64,000 nucleotides of DNA from the IMG/VR virus record IMGVR_UViG_2913177423_000001, positions 19,415-83,414 of that record; one strand, written 5' to 3'. The translations under genes and the position numbers were made by a program. Positions within the stretch are counted from its first letter, which is position 1, and each line of letters opens with the position of its first letter. Below the pieces are notes generated by a model. It did not search any database. It had not been told where the DNA came from and saw only the letters and a list, made by a program, of their open reading frames with translations. This document shows positions 1,932-19,687 of the stretch, piece after piece. The stretch comes from a virus (Duplodnaviria; Heunggongvirae; Uroviricota; Caudoviricetes).

Positions 1932-3152
1932 ATGGGAACTGCAATGAGTCAACAAACTGATACTTCTAATCTGGAAATCATCTCAGCCGCGATTGAAACG
2001 CTGCGGACACAGATCGCCCTTATTCAAAAGCGGAATCCGGGGGATGACCTGTCTAGGCGACTACATGAGAGCGTCATTGCCACTACTGATAACCTGGTCG
2101 CGGAGATCAACCAGCTACTTGAGGAAGGGACGGTTGATTACAACAAGCTGGTGGATCAGTTTGAGGAATATCAGCAAGCTGTTAATGATGGCCTGATTCG
2201 TTTTTCACAAGTCACAGGCGTATCAGCGACAGTTGAAAGCCTGGGCGATGCAGTTAATCAATTTGCCGCTAATATGCGTAGTGAGATCGGCAATCTGGAA
2301 GCGCGTCTTGAACAGGCAAATACACTGCGCAAATCTGCTGAAGCCGATTTGAGCCGTTACAAAAAAGACTATCCGCCCAGCCTGTCAAAACGTCTGGATG
2401 TTGCGGAGAAGGATAACCGCGCACTGAAAAGAGAGCGCCGGGAGCTGAAAGAGCGTTTAACAGAGCTGAATCAGCAATGTATTAAGTATCAAGGTGAAGG
2501 CGTCACTCTGCGTAAGAAGTTAGCAGCTGCGCAGAACATTATTGAAACTCTGAAACGAGAGTGCTCACAGCTTGGGCATGATCTGAATCGCGCTTGTGGC
2601 ATGGGGCAAAGACCAGAGACATTTCCGCTTATGTATGATGGGAGGGAAGCTATTGCCTATATCCATGAGTTTCCGCATGGCCTGGTCGCGGAGACTGGGC
2701 AGCGAGGAGAAGCATTACTGACGGCTAATTACCATCAGCAAATCAGAACTAGCCGCCTGCTGACTATGGATGTGATCCCATCTGTATGGGGAACGCCGCT
2801 TTACTATCGCCTCCCCGGCTTCGAAAAGGACTGGAACAACGACATAGACGAATGTCTGGCAGATAAAATAATGGCGTACCTGGAGACTGATTTCCCACGC
2901 CTGCATCGCCGGATTATGGACTCTAAGGACGCGCCGATCGATGAATTGAAAATGCGCCCAGAGACGCTGGAGGCAATCAAGCAGACGGAGTTTGACACTG
3001 TATTCAGTGTGGCCTGCATTCCAAGCTGTTTCCATGAAAGTATCCCGTTCATGCAAGGCGATCGTCGTCAGGAAATCATTGATGCTTGTCGCGTATGGGC
3101 GAACGAATGGGACAAGAAGAATGGGGGAGTAGAAGATCTTTACGGGAAATAA
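1932..3152 (+). CDS. coiled-coil protein, 406 aa, unknown function
   Basis: Long ORF; the N-terminal half is heptad-like and charged (LEARLEQANTLRKSAEADL...KRERRELKERLTELNQQ). Bracketed by operator-like sites at 1904 and 3154. Confidence 0.75.
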   Translation: MGTAMSQQTDTSNLEIISAAIETLRTQIALIQKRNPGDDLSRRLHESVIATTDNLVAEINQLLEEGTVDYNKLVDQFEEYQQAVNDGLIRFSQVTGVSATVESLGDAVNQFAANMRSEIGNLEARLEQANTLRKSAEADLSRYKKDYPPSLSKRLDVAEKDNRALKRERRELKERLTELNQQCIKYQGEGVTLRKKLAAAQNIIETLKRECSQLGHDLNRACGMGQRPETFPLMYDGREAIAYIHEFPHGLVAETGQRGEALLTANYHQQIRTSRLLTMDVIPSVWGTPLYYRLPGFEKDWNNDIDECLADKIMAYLETDFPRLHRRIMDSKDAPIDELKMRPETLEAIKQTEFDTVFSVACIPSCFHESIPFMQGDRRQEIIDACRVWANEWDKKNGGVEDLYGK

Positions 3153-3153
3153 T

Positions 3154-3170
3154 GTGTTAGAAATTTAATT
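3154..3170 (+). promoter_or_regulatory. operator-like 17-mer GTGTTAGAAATTTAATT
   Basis: Starts 2 nt after the stop at 3152; nearly identical to the site at 13374 (minus). Confidence 0.55.
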
Positions 3171-3309
3171 TCAACATACGAACATGTTGATTGTAGGTGT
3201 AACATAACATAGAATTTTCCTTGCTGGTGGAGCGTTGCCACATTTCGCTTGCTGGGCTTGATAGTCACTTATTGGTTGTTGTTCGCCCACCAGCAAATAA
3301 CAAATTAAA

Positions 3310-3326
3310 GTGTTAGAAAATTACAG
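3310..3326 (+). promoter_or_regulatory. operator-like 17-mer GTGTTAGAAAATTACAG
   Basis: Word-family member at the entry to the non-coding RNA island. A 10-bp stem, TTGCTGGTGG/CCACCAGCAA (3221-3297), lies between this site and the one at 3154. Confidence 0.5.
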
Positions 3327-3526
3327 GTATACAGGGACTCGCTTTGGCACCGAGCAAGCCAAAGTTCGGCAGGTTTAGTGCGTAAAGTGGTTTCAGAGAG
3401 AGCACTTTACGGAGTAAACGACAAGACATGTTGAGCCACGGAAGGTCTTTTTAAGATGTTCATTGATGATGGTCCGGAAGAGAGTAACGGGACTCACCGC
3501 ATCGAATCATCATCAATGCACATCCT

Positions 3527-3692
3527 CAACATTAAGGAGGCGCAGGGTTGGTTTTGTGCTCGCTTTTTTACTGACTCTGAGTCTCCTTAATGTTGCGGTA
3601 ATGCACCTATGCGGATGCGGCCTTGCATTGTGTCTTGAAAGAATGGGGTAAGGCCGGGGATATCCCCAGGGGGAGGCACCCCCGCCGCAACG
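3527..3692 (+). repeat. structured repeat unit, copy 1 (full)
   Basis: CAACATTAAGGAG...CTCCTTAATGTTG stem, CGGTAATGC tail, GGGGG-AGGCA-CCCCC hairpin, then GCCGCAACG. Confidence 0.5.
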
Positions 3693-3912
3693 AACAGCCA
3701 TAGACGGCAGTCGAGTGATGAAAACGTGAAAAGACTTTAAACCTCGTTACGGCTGGCGTGGCAAACGCGACAACCGGGATAGGACGGTGACGGGCGGAGA
3801 GAGTGCCGCATCAAGAAAGAAGCCGACTTGTGATTACTTTCTGCGGGCCTTTGAAAGTGAATCCAGCTCAGGCAGTCGGCTTCTTTCTTGTGTGAGATGT
3901 AGTAGCGTGTTT

Positions 3913-3936
3913 GCCCATCTTCGGGTGGGCTTTTTT
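3913..3936 (+). terminator. intrinsic terminator
   Basis: GCCCATC-ttcg-GGTGGGC followed by TTTTTT. Confidence 0.7.
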
Positions 3937-4119
3937 AGGGTTTTCGTCATTGTTAGCGACTTTGCGGCTGTTTATAAACTGACCATTAAAGTAAATGCAA
4001 ACGATGATCTGATGATGGTAGCGGCCTAATAAGCCTGACGCCACGGGGTATGAGTCGTCCCCCGTCAAAAAATCGACCACAGAGTGTCCCCGTCTGTGTA
4101 TTAGGGAACGGGGAGGCAT

Positions 4120-4196
4120 AACAGGCAAGGGCGCTGGTGTGATTAACCAGATGAATGAGAAGGGTCAGGTCTTTCTGGTCAGCGCCCTTACCTGTT
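4120..4196 (+). repeat. structured repeat unit, partial (stem module only)
   Basis: AACAGGCAAGGGCGCTG...CAGCGCCCTTACCTGTT, a 17-bp stem resembling the CAACAGGTAAG... stems of the other copies. Confidence 0.4.
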
Positions 4197-4397
4197 ACGT
4201 CCCTCCCGCGTAACAGCCATTGCTTGATGGTATAGGGGAAAGTTTGTTGGTTACGGGTATATCCCGTCATGCTGAAGGCGCTAATCACGCTGGAAGCCAG
4301 GGTTATGCATCCCCTGTTACCGAATTGCAGCCAGGGCGCGTTGCGCCGAAAAGCATACGGAGGTGGAAGCCCTCGCCGGAGACGTACCCGGCACAAT

Positions 4398-4474
4398 GGT
4401 GGTGTAGCTCAGTAGGATAGAGCAGCAGCCTTCTAAGCTGTCGGTCGGTGGTTCGAATCCACTCACCATCGCCA
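4398..4474 (+). tRNA. tRNA-Arg (anticodon UCU, reads AGA)
   Basis: Cloverleaf folded by hand: acceptor GGTGGTG/CACCATC, D arm GCTC/GAGC, anticodon loop CTTCTAA, T arm GGTGG-TTCGAAT-CCACT, encoded CCA. Confidence 0.9.
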
Positions 4475-4478
4475 AATT

Positions 4479-4554
4479 GCCGATTTAGCTCAGTTGGTAG
4501 AGCAGTCGCTTTGTAAGCGAATGGTCAGCGGTTCGATCCCGTTAATCGGCACCA
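4479..4554 (+). tRNA. tRNA-Thr (anticodon UGU, reads ACA)
   Basis: Acceptor GCCGATT/AATCGGC, anticodon loop TTTGTAA, T arm AGCGG-TTCGATC-CCGTT, encoded CCA; 4 nt after tRNA-Arg. Confidence 0.9.
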
Positions 4555-4557
4555 ACA

Positions 4558-4632
4558 CAACAGGTAAGGGCATTCTCCCTTATGGGGCTTGGCTTAAATG
4601 CATCGAGTGCTCTTACCGTTGTGATGAAGTGC
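4558..4632 (+). repeat. structured repeat unit, partial (stem plus tail)
   Basis: CAACAGGTAAGGGCA...TGCTCTTACCGTTG stem followed by TGATGAAGTGC; begins 4 nt after tRNA-Thr. Confidence 0.45.
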
Positions 4633-4813
4633 AGCTCTTTGAAGCAACCAGAAGATAAGCATCTGGCTTCACAACATAAACCGCAGGAACGACCAATAAA
4701 CGGTAGTCCGTATGGCGAACACCCCGTTGAGGAAGAGGCCTGGCCGGAACCGTAACCGGCACTACAACGTTGAGAGCATTGGCGTAACGGGGTCATATCC
4801 CAATCTATGAATA

Positions 4814-4900
4814 AATGTTGCGTTGCAGCGTGACAACCAGTGTTTTCAACATTGTGGTGAATGCACAGGCTGATGTGCCGCAACTACAGTAGTGCGCGCT
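4814..4900 (+). repeat. structured repeat unit, partial (stem, tail, CCGCAAC)
   Basis: AATGTTG...CAACATT stem, GTGGTGAATGC tail, GCACA-ggctga-TGTGC hairpin, then CCGCAACTAC. Confidence 0.4.
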
Positions 4901-4972
4901 TTGCGGGGCTTGCTACAACCCTGTGTCGGAGTTCAGCGCCGACCATCACAATTTATTTAGAAACTGTCATCC

Positions 4973-5386
4973 ATGAGCGCGAGAACAGTAATTATGCAGA
5001 AAGAGCAGTTTGTTATTTCTCTAGTGGTTAGCACCAGTTATCAGGTCGATAAAGTTTCGAAAGAAAGCGTACCTGAAATTGATGTTGTCGATGTGTTCGG
5101 CAATGAACTCAAAATACCACTTCGTGAATTTAATGAAATAGCAGCTCCGTTGGGCAAAATTGAAGGCCTGGAAGAATACCACAAGCGGATGATTATCGAG
5201 CGCGCCCAACTATGCCAGCGCATAAATAAGCTGGTTAGATTTATCGGAACAGATAACTTTCTCGCCATCGGCTTGGACAGTCAGTTGGAATTACAAAATC
5301 AGCTCGAAAGCATGATTGAGTATCGAAAAGCTCTTGATTCGCGGTTGATTAAATTAACCGAATATGACCCATCAGTAAGCGGTTAA
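4973..5386 (+). CDS. hypothetical protein, 137 aa, helical C-terminus
   Basis: ATG ORF with ordinary composition, embedded between RNA repeat units; no motif recognised. Confidence 0.55.
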   Translation: MSARTVIMQKEQFVISLVVSTSYQVDKVSKESVPEIDVVDVFGNELKIPLREFNEIAAPLGKIEGLEEYHKRMIIERAQLCQRINKLVRFIGTDNFLAIGLDSQLELQNQLESMIEYRKALDSRLIKLTEYDPSVSG

Positions 5387-5441
5387 TTATAAATTTGGGG
5401 CGGATGGTTAGTCCGCCGTTAACTCCATGAAACGGAGTACG

Positions 5442-5638
5442 CAACAGGTAAGAGCATTCTCCTGTAACGGGTTCATATCCCAATCTACAGGTCCACCAAG
5501 AATGCTCTTTCCGTTGCGGTGAATGCGGCTAAGCGCACGCGGAACAGTTAAAACAATCTTCCTTAATGTTTAAGTCAAACATCCCGGCGTTAATTGTTAA
5601 CTGGTTAACGTCACCTGGAGGCACCAGGCACCGCAATC
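5442..5638 (+). repeat. structured repeat unit, copy 3 (full)
   Basis: CAACAGGTAAGAGCATTCT...AGAATGCTCTTTCCGTTG stem, CGGTGAATGCGGCTAAGCGCAC tail, CCTGG-AGGCA-CCAGG hairpin, then CACCGCAATC. Confidence 0.5.
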
Positions 5639-5889
5639 TAATAAAGTTTCAAGCAATGGAGTTTTTGTTGTCAGACTACAGATATAGATGGTTGTGGAAG
5701 AATATCCTGTCCATATTCAAGTTTTTTCTTCCGCTATTTGTCTGCTTTGTCATGCTTCCTGAGCTGAAATACGCAATTTCAGACACCTTAAGCACTATCG
5801 TTACTTTTGTGTTTTATCTTTACTTTGATTACTTATTGAGCACTAAAATCTATGAATTATCCGATGAAATGCAAGGTGGCTGTAAGTGA
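5566..5889 (+). CDS. possible small membrane protein (AT-rich); weak call
   Basis: Hydrophobic segments (FKFFLPLFVCFVMLP, IVTFVFYLYF). The 5' third overlaps the conserved RNA hairpin, so a later start (ATG at about 5656) is more likely if the gene is real. Confidence 0.3.
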   Translation: MFKSNIPALIVNWLTSPGGTRHRNLIKFQAMEFLLSDYRYRWLWKNILSIFKFFLPLFVCFVMLPELKYAISDTLSTIVTFVFYLYFDYLLSTKIYELSDEMQGGCK

Positions 5890-6026
5890 TGAATTTTTGG
5901 GCGTTTGCCGATAAGAACCCTGGTTGGACATTTTTATTTCTGCTGGTGGTTGCATATGGGGTCGAGCAAGCGGCAAAAGCCTTACGCGGTTCTGGCAAAA
6001 AGCGTAAGCGGAATTGACAGTAATCT

Positions 6027-6102
6027 GGCCCCTTAGCTCAGTGGTTAGAGCTGGCGACTCATAATCGCACGGCCATCGGTTCAAATCCGGTAGGGGCCAC
6101 CA
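6027..6102 (+). tRNA. tRNA with CAU anticodon, Ile2 (ileX-like, AUA reader) rather than Met
   Basis: Acceptor GGCCCCT/AGGGGCC, D arm and anticodon stem-loop GGCGA-CTCATAA-TCGC match my memory of E. coli ileX/ileY; encoded CCA. Confidence 0.85.
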
Positions 6103-6290
6103 TATTTGGTTGTAACACGGCGTCTGGCACATGCGTCGTTAGCGGTCTGGTGACGTTAAAGGGATTCCCTCCCTCGCTTAGGCAAACAAATCAGGTAGCC
6201 GGAATGTGCAAGCCACCGTTTAGTTCTTTCTCGGATAAAGGGGCTCACCACCCTGGCGACGCGGTGTGACAGCCGGAAGAGCACGGCGCA

Positions 6291-6447
6291 CAACAGGAAA
6301 AGGCGTTTAATTAGCGTGAGCGCCGTTTCCGTTGTGGTAATTGCGGCTATGCGCTCGTGACGAAGCCATTTTCATTCATTGCGGTTCTGATAAGTGTCGT
6401 CGCCGGGCGTGGCTGACCTGGCAGGTGGAGGCACCACCGCCACAACT
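6291..6447 (+). repeat. structured repeat unit, copy 4 (full)
   Basis: CAACAGGAAAAGGCG...CGCCGTTTCCGTTG stem, TGGTAATTGCGGCTATGCGC tail, GGTGG-AGGCA-CCACC hairpin, then GCCACAACT. Confidence 0.5.
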
Positions 6448-6558
6448 CCTTTCAATTCATCATATAGCCGCTCAGGCTGTAACCCTTAATTAATACGAAG
6501 TTTCGACATCTCTATCGGTTTAACCGAGGGATGGTCGCGCGTGTAAAAAGGAGACGTT

Positions 6559-7134
6559 ATGTTAACGGCGAACGATAACGCGTATGCAGAAGCAGATCTC
6601 ATATTGAGTGACTTCATCGGTCAGCGGGAACGCTGGACACAAAAGCGAGAGGAACTTTATGCCTCGTTAGTTCGCAAAGGTGTCAACATTGAAACCGCTC
6701 AAAGCGGCGATATGACGGTAGTCAGTGTTGGATTACATGGTGTGAGCGTGTCCGCAGCCAATCATGAGCCATACGTAGCGTTATCCGAGTCGATGGCAAG
6801 GCTAATTAAGTTTCTGAAGCAAACAGAAGCCAATAATGTTTTCATCGCCAAAAAGAACATCAATTTTTCTGCCGCCGTGTTCTGGATGATGAAGGGGCTT
6901 GACGCCCGCCGGGCATCATGGCCTAAAGGGAGCTATATGTCGATGTTCCGTGGCAGTATTGGCAGTAAAGAAAAGCTCGTCGAATTCCTGCCGGAAGAAG
7001 CATTCGATATTGTGGAAGGGTGCGATGTGATGGTTATGCCTCGCCTGGTAATGATGAATGGAGATTTACAGGCACAGACAGACTGGTTCGCCACTGGCGT
7101 GGATATTATCGCGACTGACTGGGAGGCATTCTGA
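6559..7134 (+). CDS. two-domain protein with C-terminal DUF2829 (Tad2-like) module
   Basis: AGGAG RBS. C-terminal FSAAVFWMMKGLDARRASWPKG...TDWFATGVDIIATDWEAF fits DUF2829; the N-terminal ~100 aa is unrecognised. Confidence 0.75.
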   Translation: MLTANDNAYAEADLILSDFIGQRERWTQKREELYASLVRKGVNIETAQSGDMTVVSVGLHGVSVSAANHEPYVALSESMARLIKFLKQTEANNVFIAKKNINFSAAVFWMMKGLDARRASWPKGSYMSMFRGSIGSKEKLVEFLPEEAFDIVEGCDVMVMPRLVMMNGDLQAQTDWFATGVDIIATDWEAF

Positions 7135-7526
7135 TGTACGAGACTACAAAATTAAGCATTCATGAAGCCACCAATATGGAGTGGAATATCGTCACCTGTA
7201 AGATTGTATCGTGTAATGCTGCGCGTACTGATGCAGGCCATAAGAGCACGATAACAGGCTACATGGTAATGGCTTATAGGGGATTGAGAGTTCGCTTTAT
7301 CTGGAAAGCTCGGCAATTGACACCATTCAGAGAGCCGTCAATGCCATTAGAGGTAGAACAGGATTATTTAAGCCTGCCGGAAATAGACGGTGCAACGCTG
7401 GTGGATTCTGATGGTCGTAAGGCTGATTTTGAAGTCAGCTTAAAGGTGGCGCAGGCCGTAATTAATAACTCACGTGGTAAGTGGATCGCTAAGGTAAAAC
7501 ACGTCGTTCGCTTATCTCGCTGGTAA
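7134..7526 (+). CDS. hypothetical protein, 130 aa
   Basis: ATGA stop-start overlap with the upstream gene; no motif recognised. Confidence 0.65.
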   Translation: MYETTKLSIHEATNMEWNIVTCKIVSCNAARTDAGHKSTITGYMVMAYRGLRVRFIWKARQLTPFREPSMPLEVEQDYLSLPEIDGATLVDSDGRKADFEVSLKVAQAVINNSRGKWIAKVKHVVRLSRW

Positions 7527-18952: not shown

Positions 18953-19687
18953 TTAATCAGCCTCCAGTGGCAATAACGCCTTAGCCATTTCATGAATCAG
19001 CATGGCATCAATGACGCCTAGCGTATGGCCCGGCTTAATCTTTAATGCGGCCTCAAGATAGCCTCTTTCCAGAGTGGTTTTTACGCTTTTCCTGGGCGCT
19101 TGTTGGGGACTATCCGGAAGATCCGGATGGTTGCCAGCCTCATAAGCTACCCGCAACCAGTGCATGAATGTTTCCGCAGACACACAACCACAGTCCACAT
19201 CGATTTTCCCGCGTTGCTGTTCCAGCCATTGCTCAAAATCTAACTTGCAAGCCTTACTTTCAAGTTCATCACCATTGAACTCGACTTTCTGCGACGCTAT
19301 GAGAGCGGCTTCGTACTGTTCGCGAGAGACAACTGACTGGTATTCATCGCTATCAAGGTCACGAATTGGAAGCTCAATCTCACGACAAAAATTCCGCCCA
19401 TAGAACTGGTCTTTTTTGTGGTCTGAGCCAAAAGCAAAAGTCGCGCATGGCGCCATTAAATTGACACTGAGTATGTGACAATAACTCATGCCATCAGGCC
19501 ATCCGCCGCACTTAGGCAACTCCTTCACTAATAAGTCGATCAGCTTCATTGTTTTACCATCTTTGCAAGTCGCCAAAGCCATTTGAGCAAGCGCCAATAC
19601 TTCATCTGCCGTATATCCAGCACCGTGACCATACATTTCTATTCGGGAAATAATCTCTGATATACGCTCTTTATTGATTCTGATCAT
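18953..19687 (-). CDS. hypothetical protein, 244 aa
   Basis: ATGA overlap with the upstream gene at 19684-19687. Confidence 0.65.
   Translation of the reverse strand: MIRINKERISEIISRIEMYGHGAGYTADEVLALAQMALATCKDGKTMKLIDLLVKELPKCGGWPDGMSYCHILSVNLMAPCATFAFGSDHKKDQFYGRNFCREIELPIRDLDSDEYQSVVSREQYEAALIASQKVEFNGDELESKACKLDFEQWLEQQRGKIDVDCGCVSAETFMHWLRVAYEAGNHPDLPDSPQQAPRKSVKTTLERGYLEAALKIKPGHTLGVIDAMLIHEMAKALLPLEAD

Follow-up and report, generated by a model that had tools for sequence, protein, structure and literature searches.

What does a phage keep in 3.4 kb of DNA that holds hardly any genes? We ask this of positions 3153–6558 (plus strand) in a stretch of 64,000 nt, hereafter the window, taken from the caudovirus record IMGVR_UViG_2913177423_000001 (record positions 19,415–83,414). 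An initial annotation, made from the letters alone, had described the region as a mostly non-coding, hairpin-dense plus-strand unit with three tRNAs behind repressor-operator words, set in a window whose genes elsewhere abut or overlap, and the analysis bears this out: credible coding sequence takes up ~780 of its 3406 nt (~23%), and the genes downstream do abut or overlap. The island is a repressor-controlled array of phage RNA genes and, as a whole, a known kind of locus. Its most distinctive part, which had been missed, is a module at 3937–4116 that looks like an RNA cassette derived from transfer-messenger RNA (tmRNA, encoded by ssrA) and devoid of a tRNA-like domain (TLD); none of the four roles proposed earlier for the island (scaffolds for tRNA processing, decoys for anticodon nucleases or for RNA-guided or RNA-sensing defences, type III antitoxin mimics, and a large ornate RNA) fits this module. 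trans-Translation is the main bacterial pathway of ribosome rescue and quality control, and it influences the growth of some phages. The explanation we favour, with a confidence just short of even, is that the island is a repressor-controlled cassette array whose module base-pairs with the tmRNA of the host, the tag template of which it masks or replaces.

Tag frame and pseudoknots of the tmRNA-related module

The module resembles tmRNA, and especially its two-piece or permuted forms (RF00023, RF04321, RF01849), in both its message and the structures that follow it. Directly after the resume context UAAAU it reads GCA AAC GAU GAU CUG AUG AUG GUA GCG GCC UAA UAA, that is, ANDDLMMVAA and a double stop, where Escherichia coli ssrA reads GCA AAC GAC GAA AAC UAC GCU UUA GCA GCU UAA UAA, or ANDENYALAA and a double stop. 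The two have in common the resume codon GCA, a tag of 10 codons that starts with AN and then D or E and ends in small hydrophobic residues and A, and a stop that is often doubled in the module, as it is in E. coli. They also share an A at position −4, which is kept in variants of the module and which we take to be the counterpart of A86 of E. coli tmRNA, important for frame setting. In the 29 distinct nucleotide versions that we compared, the tag always has 10 codons with the stop at codon 11, and that stop may be TAA, TAG or TGA. Many of the differences between versions are synonymous (among them TAT/TAC, GCC/GCT/GCG, CTG/TTG, GAA/GAG and GTC/GTG), and the peptides fall into two classes, ..[YF]LAVA and ..[MV][LM][AMV]AA. 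Conservation of the amino acids sets in precisely at GCA; the in-frame residues before it differ between lineages, and P1 carries an in-frame TAG seven codons upstream. The tag frame is under reading-frame selection, and the tag is presumably translated.

It is highly improbable that this frame is an ordinary very small open reading frame (ORF), or the C-terminus of one, that is initiated normally and yields a product with an ssrA-like degron. In its favour, the frame is open back to 3787 in the window, and an AUG or GUG overlaps the first base of GCA in another frame. The stop in P1 and the unconserved residues before GCA argue against such a product. So does the overlapping frame, whose length ranges between 5 and 9 codons with radical, non-conservative changes, and no Shine-Dalgarno sequence was seen on reading the bases upstream of the tag.

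The message is followed, as in tmRNA, by pseudoknots, here two of the H type (PKa and PKb, Table 1), whose helices we tabulated in 21 variants, with a formal covariation count on 14 of them. In the 14 variants, 95.1% of the cells of the two pseudoknots are paired, compared with 86.6% after shuffling; 11 of the 19 pairs have changed on both sides, a number reached by 0 of 500 shuffles, and pairing falls to 33–50% in controls with slid partners. Both pseudoknots are thus well supported. No pseudoknot 1 (PK1) was identified upstream of the message, where the module instead carries an arm that complements the 3' strand of the host PK1. The module is variable at just 16 of its 180 positions in a set of 19 P1/D6-type sequences, in which neighbouring loops have been replaced. 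Besides lacking PK1, the module differs from tmRNA in its missing TLD and CCA end, its length of ~180 nt, the arm antisense to host tmRNA, its carriage by phages and plasmids, and sub-threshold scores in searches for tmRNA.

An arm antisense to host tmRNA

The 38-nt arm is antisense to nt 68–104 of E. coli ssrA, a segment that spans the PK1 3' strand, the leader, the resume codon and codons 1–5. Local alignment of the window arm with the reverse complement of ssrA scores 32, compared with 15.3 ± 2.2 (maximum 24) for shuffled sequences, and seven variants score 32–36 against shuffle maxima of 24–27. The predicted duplex of the window arm with ssrA 61–112 reaches −39.6 kcal/mol (z = −6.9), compared with z = −0.5 for pairing with the module's own message; across 14 variants, the duplex with ssrA ranges from −19 to −41 kcal/mol (z −3.6 to −9.1), and pairing with the own message ranges from z −1.5 to +1.5. 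Because the arm is predicted to pair with host ssrA beyond shuffles and not with its own message, we infer that it is directed at the host RNA. A cis-hairpin reading of the arm was rejected, own-message pairing being no better than in shuffles. The seed GUUUUCGU, complementary to host codons 3–5, is present in all four lineages that were found with an arm-free pattern. By the duplex scores of the 14 variants, the module, like a trans-acting antisense small RNA or sponge, has a conserved stretch that complements a defined target more than unrelated sequence. In SSU5-type copies, the seed stands just 3' of a putative −10-like box, TATAAG (our reading of the sequence), and may thus lie near the 5' end of the transcript.

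Complementarity to host ssrA and a seed perhaps near the 5' end would also suit an RNA that serves only as an antisense inhibitor or sponge of host tmRNA, its tag frame being untranslated mimicry that binds, for example, S1, SmpB or RNase R. The module would then be a counterpart of the TLD-only tmRNA of mycobacteriophage DS6A, which is likewise a phage-borne partial tmRNA; a molecule like the DS6A RNA strongly inhibits tmRNA (PMC4131195; PMC11915505), so that there is precedent for a tmRNA fragment able to inhibit trans-translation (PMC4131195). However, DS6A has the tRNA-like half only, whereas the module is the message and pseudoknot half plus an antisense arm, and mimicry predicts neither an exact stop at codon 11 with interchangeable TAA, TAG and TGA nor synonymous codon changes. 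We consider a pure inhibitor unlikely.

Within the viral and plasmid records that it searched, a survey from 2014 detected ssrA in eight mycobacteriophages and nowhere else, with Bacillus phage G and DS6A added from outside the dataset (PMC4131195); since its list does not hold the present module, the module escaped it. Our literature searches for the tags, for phage tmRNA-like RNAs and for anti-tmRNA activity returned nothing relevant, and as far as the literature searched and Rfam 15 show, a tmRNA-directed module of this kind is undescribed.

A possible hybrid with host tmRNA

In the scheme that we favour, the island is an array of cassettes. These hold RNA genes, tRNAs and a few small ORFs that have leaders of the dicB type, and one family of long, near-perfect hairpins would separate them. 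Upon derepression or infection, the module would be cut from the operon transcript at its flanking hairpins or, in SSU5-type copies, be made from a promoter of its own. It would then pair with host tmRNA and displace the PK1 3' strand and the host message. Masking the host tag template in this way would block tagging; alternatively, the phage resume codon may be presented to the host TLD with SmpB, in which case rescued ribosomes would add a phage tag of the ...MVAA or ...LAVA class in place of ANDENYALAA. That this ~180-nt RNA of many enterobacterial phages docks on host tmRNA to give a hybrid two-piece tmRNA, with TLD and SmpB from the host and the message from the phage, and so rewrites the degradation tag, is a tentative proposal that we would call possible rather than probable.

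Several observations weigh against the favoured explanation. The best Rfam match of the module, to tmRNA_permuted (RF04321) just 3' of a terminator, reaches 26.2 bits (E 0.0024 on 701 nt) where the gathering score is 47, and that to alpha_tmRNA (RF01849) reaches 16.2 bits where it is 50, so that both stay below threshold; the same tmRNA models match in P1 and D6. In a search with a sequence profile of the module (nhmmer), E. coli ssrA ranked first, at a non-significant E of 1. ARAGORN reported neither a tmRNA nor a TLD at its default, the resume consensus being matched at a lowered threshold; the 108-nt tRNA-domain core of RF04321 is replaced by 13 nt. Lacking a TLD, the module fails the definition of tmRNA. 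The later sets of variants were retrieved with the pattern GTTTTCGT and are biased for the seed, leaving the four lineages above as the unbiased set. Co-folding at full length with ssrA gave the window copy a modest net gain (−8.4, against −4.3 ± 2.6 for the control), and among four variants the gain was clear for that of Escherichia phage ECBP1 (L026) and for L075 and absent for an SSU5-type copy (L008). In the one attempt at a host-covariation test, with Aeromonas, the predicted ssrA pattern matched no Aeromonas genome, the host gene was not retrieved and the specific prediction was not borne out. A strong intrinsic terminator (3909–3936) lies directly 5' of the module, whose expression therefore needs read-through or processing. 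Lastly, P1 still forms plaques when the genes from trnT to ban are knocked down (PMC10695390), making the unit accessory in the laboratory.

Two candidates for a more complete tmRNA were set aside. At the lowered threshold (-ps80), ARAGORN gave three mutually inconsistent TLDs, and the 7-bp terminator stem at 3912–3929, which resembled a capped acceptor stem, was ruled out because no T arm precedes it. Each phage might nevertheless encode the missing half at another place in its genome, for instance within the odd tRNA-like genes, and the module would then supply the coding part of a true two-piece tmRNA of the phage. The permuted (two-piece) family is the best Rfam match of the module, which usually sits within tRNA clusters, and genuine permuted tmRNA genes do exist in what we take to be giant phages: ARAGORN at default detected one in each of two viral contigs of great size, 332 kb and 172 kb, where the tag reads ANDEVYALAA with a double stop (L017 2455–2848; L018 3888–4298). 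Yet no acceptor piece with G3–U70 was found in the window or the loci, including the neighbouring tRNAs on inspection of their alignment; compact copies in phage pAh6-C and lambdoid prophages have no tRNA-like partner nearby, and the 5' arm fits host tmRNA rather than an acceptor strand. A two-piece tmRNA encoded wholly by the phage is, in our view, quite improbable.

Dispensability for P1 plaques and mosaic organisation would be expected if the island were evolutionary debris, that is, a captured ssrA fragment, terminators and recombination scars, with function limited to the tRNAs. Against debris, phages of several unrelated kinds have retained the module with covarying pairs and a selected frame, and it varies at few positions among P1/D6-type sequences; we give this explanation very little credence.

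If the favoured account is true, a phage RNA that pairs with tmRNA and has a tag frame of its own would let phages edit or silence trans-translation, which may carry special weight where defence nucleases or phage-induced mRNA decay stall many ribosomes. A hybrid tmRNA, if it forms, would be a previously unknown viral way to reprogram trans-translation.

Distribution of the module

We detected the module in 752 phage records and in 660 of 5426 complete E. coli genomes (about one in eight), mostly unannotated; in the E. coli genomes, PGAP annotates the copies as nothing or as hypothetical protein. Carriers, for which the labels SSU5-like, T1-like and ViI-like (drawn from the names and sizes of records) and the N4 group are our own, are P1/D6-like and SSU5-like phage-plasmids, records named Felixounavirus, relatives of ViI, T1 and N4, lambdoid prophages and an Aeromonas phage. 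They thus include laboratory workhorses and phages relevant to therapy, such as P1, relatives of Felix O1, ViI, T1 and N4, and Stx-type prophages. Genomes among the 752 records include some of ~157 kb (ViI-like) and of 46–49 kb (T1-like), and hosts include Salmonella, Klebsiella, Erwinia, Serratia and Enterobacter. In the SSU5-like phage-plasmids (~109 kb), the tag is ANEEVYLAVA with a double stop, ~50–60 nt after the putative −10-like box, and the same long hairpins and tRNAs follow.

Phage ECBP1 and other records, including Gamaleyavirus (N4-like), carry the module as well. In ECBP1 (L026 11041–12260) it lies within an odd tRNA-like cluster that holds a 72-nt tRNA-Ala(CGC), a 'tRNA-Cys(ACA)' and short CCA-ended hairpins seemingly without an anticodon arm. 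Aeromonas phage pAh6-C has the module as a compact intergenic unit, flanked (L013 3120–3390) by two copies of a ~50-nt element, gcataactcgag...ctctatggtatgttta, which may be phage promoters or processing hairpins. In lambdoid prophages, the module sits between Q and the holin gene, just after an apparent PR'/tR'-type promoter and terminator; in the chromosome of E. coli FORC_028 (L234 2400–2800), this copy is bracketed by two long hairpins and contains no tRNA. The Q–holin slot of Stx phages carries stx genes and tRNAs.

Long hairpins and cassette architecture

Is the island as rich in structure as first described? Folding energies of 120-nt windows were regressed on G+C and compared between 3.4-kb blocks of the 64-kb window. 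On the plus strand, the blocks that overlap the region are the most structured of all, with a mean residual of −4.3 kcal/mol per 120 nt (Mann-Whitney p = 2e-10), compared with only −1.0 (p = 0.065) on the minus strand; this strand-specific excess and the G–U pairs of hairpins C and D indicate that the structure is one of RNA, made from the strand that is transcribed. All six stems listed in the initial annotation exist. Those at 3221/3296 (10 bp) and 3812/3890 (17 bp) are perfect, that at 3461/3518 forms part of a stem 3450–3476/3503–3529, and that at 5442/5516 is the stem 5440–5460/5499–5518. The stem at 4120/4196 (4117–4137/4180–4199), given there as 17 perfect bp, in fact consists of 10 + 6 bp around one C–A mismatch.

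Six copies of one family of long hairpins (A to F, Table 1) occur within the island only and on the plus strand only. Members have a CAAC...GUUG foot in common, and most also share a helix GGUAAGRGC/GCUCUUWCC and a tail GGUGAAUGC. As read by eye, variants of the foot appear to stay paired (CACAAC/GUUGUG, CGCAAC/GUUGCG and UAACAGG/CCUGUUA here, CUAUC/GAUAG and AACUGG/CCAGUU in other phages). Of nine long hairpins folded, eight have z scores of −3.0 to −5.8 against dinucleotide shuffles, the ninth being hairpin F (6284–6365) at −1.8. Two G–U pairs in hairpin C fit only a plus-strand RNA. In other phages, a hairpin of the hairpin B kind begins right 3' of PKb. Small GGG..ATATCCC hairpins recur at 3655–3668, 4255–4270, 4787–4802 and 5467–5482, two of them in the apical loops of hairpins D and E, and D and E have a 24-nt stretch in common.

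Stems of 20 bp or more are typical substrates of RNase III, and with 17–25 paired positions the long hairpins between cistrons fall in this range of ~20 bp or more of double-stranded RNA. They most likely direct endonucleolytic processing, and the earlier idea of scaffolds for tRNA processing is still a sensible way to read the hairpins on either side of each cassette. The RNase III hairpins of the phage T7 early operon similarly repeat stems of 20 bp or more between cistrons of one polycistronic early transcript; they have no sequence relation to those of the island, which are putative processing sites and also mark recombination breakpoints. Homology to relatives breaks at or beside long hairpins (4875, 4952–4957, 5493, 5635–5648 and 5873–5887), and the cargo between them varies: D6 has tRNA-Ser(UGA), some plasmids have an additional tRNA-Tyr, other relatives carry SPFH, TerB/TciA or DUF3927 genes, and the copy here has a crAss001_48-like gene. 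In SSU5-like plasmids, other phages and lambdoid prophages, the module and tRNAs are flanked by these hairpins too. The hairpins probably also serve as portable cassette borders. Phage 'tRNA regions' would then be recast as series of RNA cassettes with a common hairpin at their borders, exchanged between unrelated phages. An attC-like reading of the CAAC...GTTG feet, as in integrons, was dropped because the G–U pairs and the strand asymmetry of folding energy indicate RNA; there is also no integrase gene among the ORFs listed and scanned around the island.

The remaining roles suggested earlier for the island found little to sustain them. The island does lie beside phage tRNAs, and the next gene (6559–7134) has a Tad2-like anti-defence domain, a setting that would suit a decoy for anticodon nucleases or for defences that sense RNA, a mimic of an antitoxin, or an RNA of the large ornate kind. 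An Rfam scan, however, gave no match to GOLLD, ROOL, HEARO or other large ornate RNAs at E <= 5 over 2500–7500, where only tRNAs pass gathering scores (a riboswitch or known small RNA was rejected on the same ground). Type III antitoxins are not mimicked by any tandem array, the sole TRF match being 2.2 copies of a 9-nt unit inside a coding sequence (CDS), and no toxin family turned up among the proteins scanned against Pfam and PHROGs. For nuclease decoys, no positive evidence turned up, no test having been aimed at them, and beyond the three tRNAs neither ARAGORN nor Rfam found a tRNA-like element at default thresholds. We rate these roles together as barely plausible.

Relation to the P1 ban-operon leader

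In sequence, the island comes closest to phage D6, with 90% identity at 71% coverage; P1-type phages and 993 plasmid records rank next. It lies between a pmgS-like gene (1932–3152) and the 191-aa gene at 6559–7134. The syntenic stretch of P1 is, by annotation, the entrance of the ban operon, with the C1 operator Op72/Oban, P1ban/P2ban, a 'dicF-like region', trnA, trnT, plp/upl, tciA-C and trnI, and then ban. Synteny, shared tRNAs and a repressor operator with a promoter at the entrance suggest that the island, as an early transcription unit with little coding sequence, is the D6-type equivalent of the leader of the P1 ban operon. The two are 88–96% identical across 3909–4957, 5413–5542 and 6017–6290, have the same tRNA order and are both under repressor control at the entrance, and P1 has the tmRNA-related module too, unannotated, at ~68,880–69,065. 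They differ in the leader (715 nt in the D6-type copy here, ~180 nt in P1), in a tRNA-Arg where P1 has tRNA-Asn, in a crAss001_48-like gene where P1 has plp/upl/tciA, and in what lies downstream. Whereas the P1 leader leads into ban, a DnaB-like helicase gene, no ban follows here; the next gene encodes the Tad2-like protein, and the abutting ORFs after it have the sizes and the order of orf5, lpa and pacA in D6.

The general layout was already known, because the P1 ban operon is annotated and because a paper on a D6-like plasmid, in which tciA/B are regarded as morons, uses the term 'tRNAs region' for the locus (PMC6799933). The earlier statement that nothing like the island had been described for P1-type phages was therefore wrong.

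Entrance of the island and the D6-type leader

The two operator-like words that had been noted at the entrance are real, and they flank a sigma-70-like site that is the sole promoter-like site in 3000–6700 (Table 1). The word GTGTTAGAAAWTTA has 14 matches with <=2 mismatches in the window, compared with 1.16 expected. Its other copies lie at 861, 1904, 7544, 11975, 12153, 13377, 26090, 26745, 26767, 38083, 38101 and 46164, with 26745/26767 and 38083/38101 forming close pairs on opposite strands, and this scatter resembles the map of a C1-type regulon.

In an alignment of nine relatives, the D6-type leader keeps its stems while the loops differ, and both hairpin A and the 17-bp stem show compensatory changes. 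The loop of hairpin A shows 2-nt indels on our reading of the alignment, which argue against an ORF across this hairpin; ORFs that had been considered there are broken in relatives. About 200 nt of the leader (3597–3800) are almost invariant among the same nine sequences, while the adjoining hairpin loops have been replaced.

Table 1. Features of the island, with positions in the window.
Feature	Position	Strand	Remarks
Operator-like word 1	3154..3167	+	GTGTTAGAAATTTA; one of 14 window matches
Sigma-70-like promoter	3187..3215	+	TTGATT-17-TAGAAT; between the two operator words
D6-type leader RNA	3221..3936	+	ends in intrinsic terminator 3909-3936
Leader hairpins	3221/3296, 3373/3419, 3450/3529, A at 3527/3595, 17-bp stem 3812/3890	+	
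Operator-like word 2	3310..3323	+	GTGTTAGAAAATTA; invariant among 9 D6-like sequences
dicB-leader-like copy 1	3596-3691	+	diverged
Arm, 38 nt	3937..3974	+	antisense to E. coli ssrA nt 68-104; conserved seed GTTTTCGTC 3940-3948
Linker and tag	3975..4032	+	resume context UAAAU before GCA; tag ANDDLMMVAA 3997-4026; double stop TAATAA 4027-4032
Pseudoknot PKa	4043-4048/4060-4065 (S1), 4054-4057/4074-4077 (S2)	+	H-type
Pseudoknot PKb	4078-4083/4093-4098 (S1), 4087-4092/4109-4114 (S2)	+	H-type
Hairpin B	4117..4199	+	foot UAACAGG.AAGGGC / GCCCUUACCUGUUA; z = -5.4
tRNA-Arg(UCU)	4398-4474	+	ARAGORN, Rfam 68 bits
tRNA-Thr(UGU)	4479-4554	+	ARAGORN, Rfam 68 bits
Hairpin C	4556..4623	+	CACAAC-A-GGUAAGGGC... 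/ ...GCUCUUACC-GUUGUG
Hairpin D	4760..4864	+	with GGUGAAUGC tail; z = -3.6; mosaic breakpoint vs relatives at 4875
CDS, crAss001_48-related, not TciA	4973..5386	+	PF21825 E 2.4e-12; phrog_15270 E 2e-75
Hairpin E	5440..5518	+	z = -5.0; breakpoint at 5493
dicB/kil-leader-like element (STnc100-like), copy 2	5515..5648	+	small hairpin at 5614-5628
Small CDS	5656-5889	+	in-frame ATG also upstream at 5566; product looks hydrophobic on reading the sequence
Small CDS, tciC-like, 43 aa	5886-6017	+	132-nt CDS called by PGAP in relatives
tRNA, CAU anticodon	6027..6102	+	equals P1 trnI, annotated tRNA-Ile2
Hairpin F	6289-6336	+	precedes leader-like copy 3, upstream of CDS 6559
dicB-leader-like copy 3	6336-6446	+	diverged; small hairpin 6424-6438, upstream of CDS 6559

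dicB-type leader copies

A second element overlooked earlier, at 5515–5635, is by its sequence homologous to the leader of dicB in prophage Qin. It is 81.6% identical to the dicF–dicB spacer of Qin over 125 nt (E 6e-24) and stands, as such leaders do, upstream of a small kil/dicB-type ORF; the same 134 nt precede kil in an Stx phage, and matches occur in many other lambdoid and Stx phages. STnc100 (RF02076), described as a prophage small RNA related to PasD (bioRxiv 10.64898/2026.05.13.724894), matches 5515–5635 below threshold (42.4 bits against a gathering score of 47, model positions 31–147 of 206). The island differs from the dicB operon of Qin and the STnc100–PasD small RNAs in this sub-threshold score and in holding three diverged copies inside one operon; diverged copies 1 and 3 each end in a small hairpin with the core GGAGGCACC and a co-varying stem.

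The 'dicF-like region' of P1 is homologous to sequence upstream of dicF and not to DicF itself. A DicF gene in the island was likewise rejected, with no Rfam DicF match at E <= 5 and only a 12-mer, TCTGGTGACGTT, at 6146..6157 (+). This 12-mer, just after the CAU tRNA, equals DicF nt 3–14 and alone is at chance level (E 0.39). Its complement lies at 5601–5615 inside the dicB-type leader, and the pair recurs in P1 (L002 4699–4710) and in prophage Qin.

tRNAs and coding sequences

ARAGORN and Rfam confirmed the three same-strand tRNAs. The acceptor stem and T arm of tRNA-Arg(UCU) are identical to those of the tRNA-Asn(GUU) of P1 and of an SSU5-like plasmid, and the anticodon arm and D loop differ (compared with the window copy were L002 2995–3070, L008 2362–2436 and L004 1837–1913); by this alignment, one tRNA scaffold carries swapped identities. 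Some relatives have a tRNA-Tyr inserted between the first two tRNAs.

Only two small CDSs had been thought defensible, at 4973..5386 and, weakly, from 5566 to 5889. Both stand, and a third, the tciC-like CDS, had been missed. The first is a cargo cassette in place of the tRNA-Ser of D6. For the second, ATG 5656 is a likelier start than 5566, because the in-frame part from 5566 (residues 4–28) only overlaps the leader element. Of the other six-frame ORFs, which the initial annotation had discounted, the longest, 3986–4396 on the minus strand (phrog_27020), is broken by stops or frameshifts in P1-type relatives and has no excess of third-position substitutions (21/19/15), and it is therefore spurious. 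PHROG families 27020 and 24763 appear to have been built from ORFs over non-coding RNA, namely the pseudoknot and hairpin B region (4067–4270, −) and the dicB-type leader (5575–5650, +).

The first gene after the island (6559–7134, +) has a Thoeris anti-defence 2-like domain (PF11195, E 3e-9; phrog_7362), and PGAP names its homologue in one relative 'MW1434 family type I TA system toxin'.

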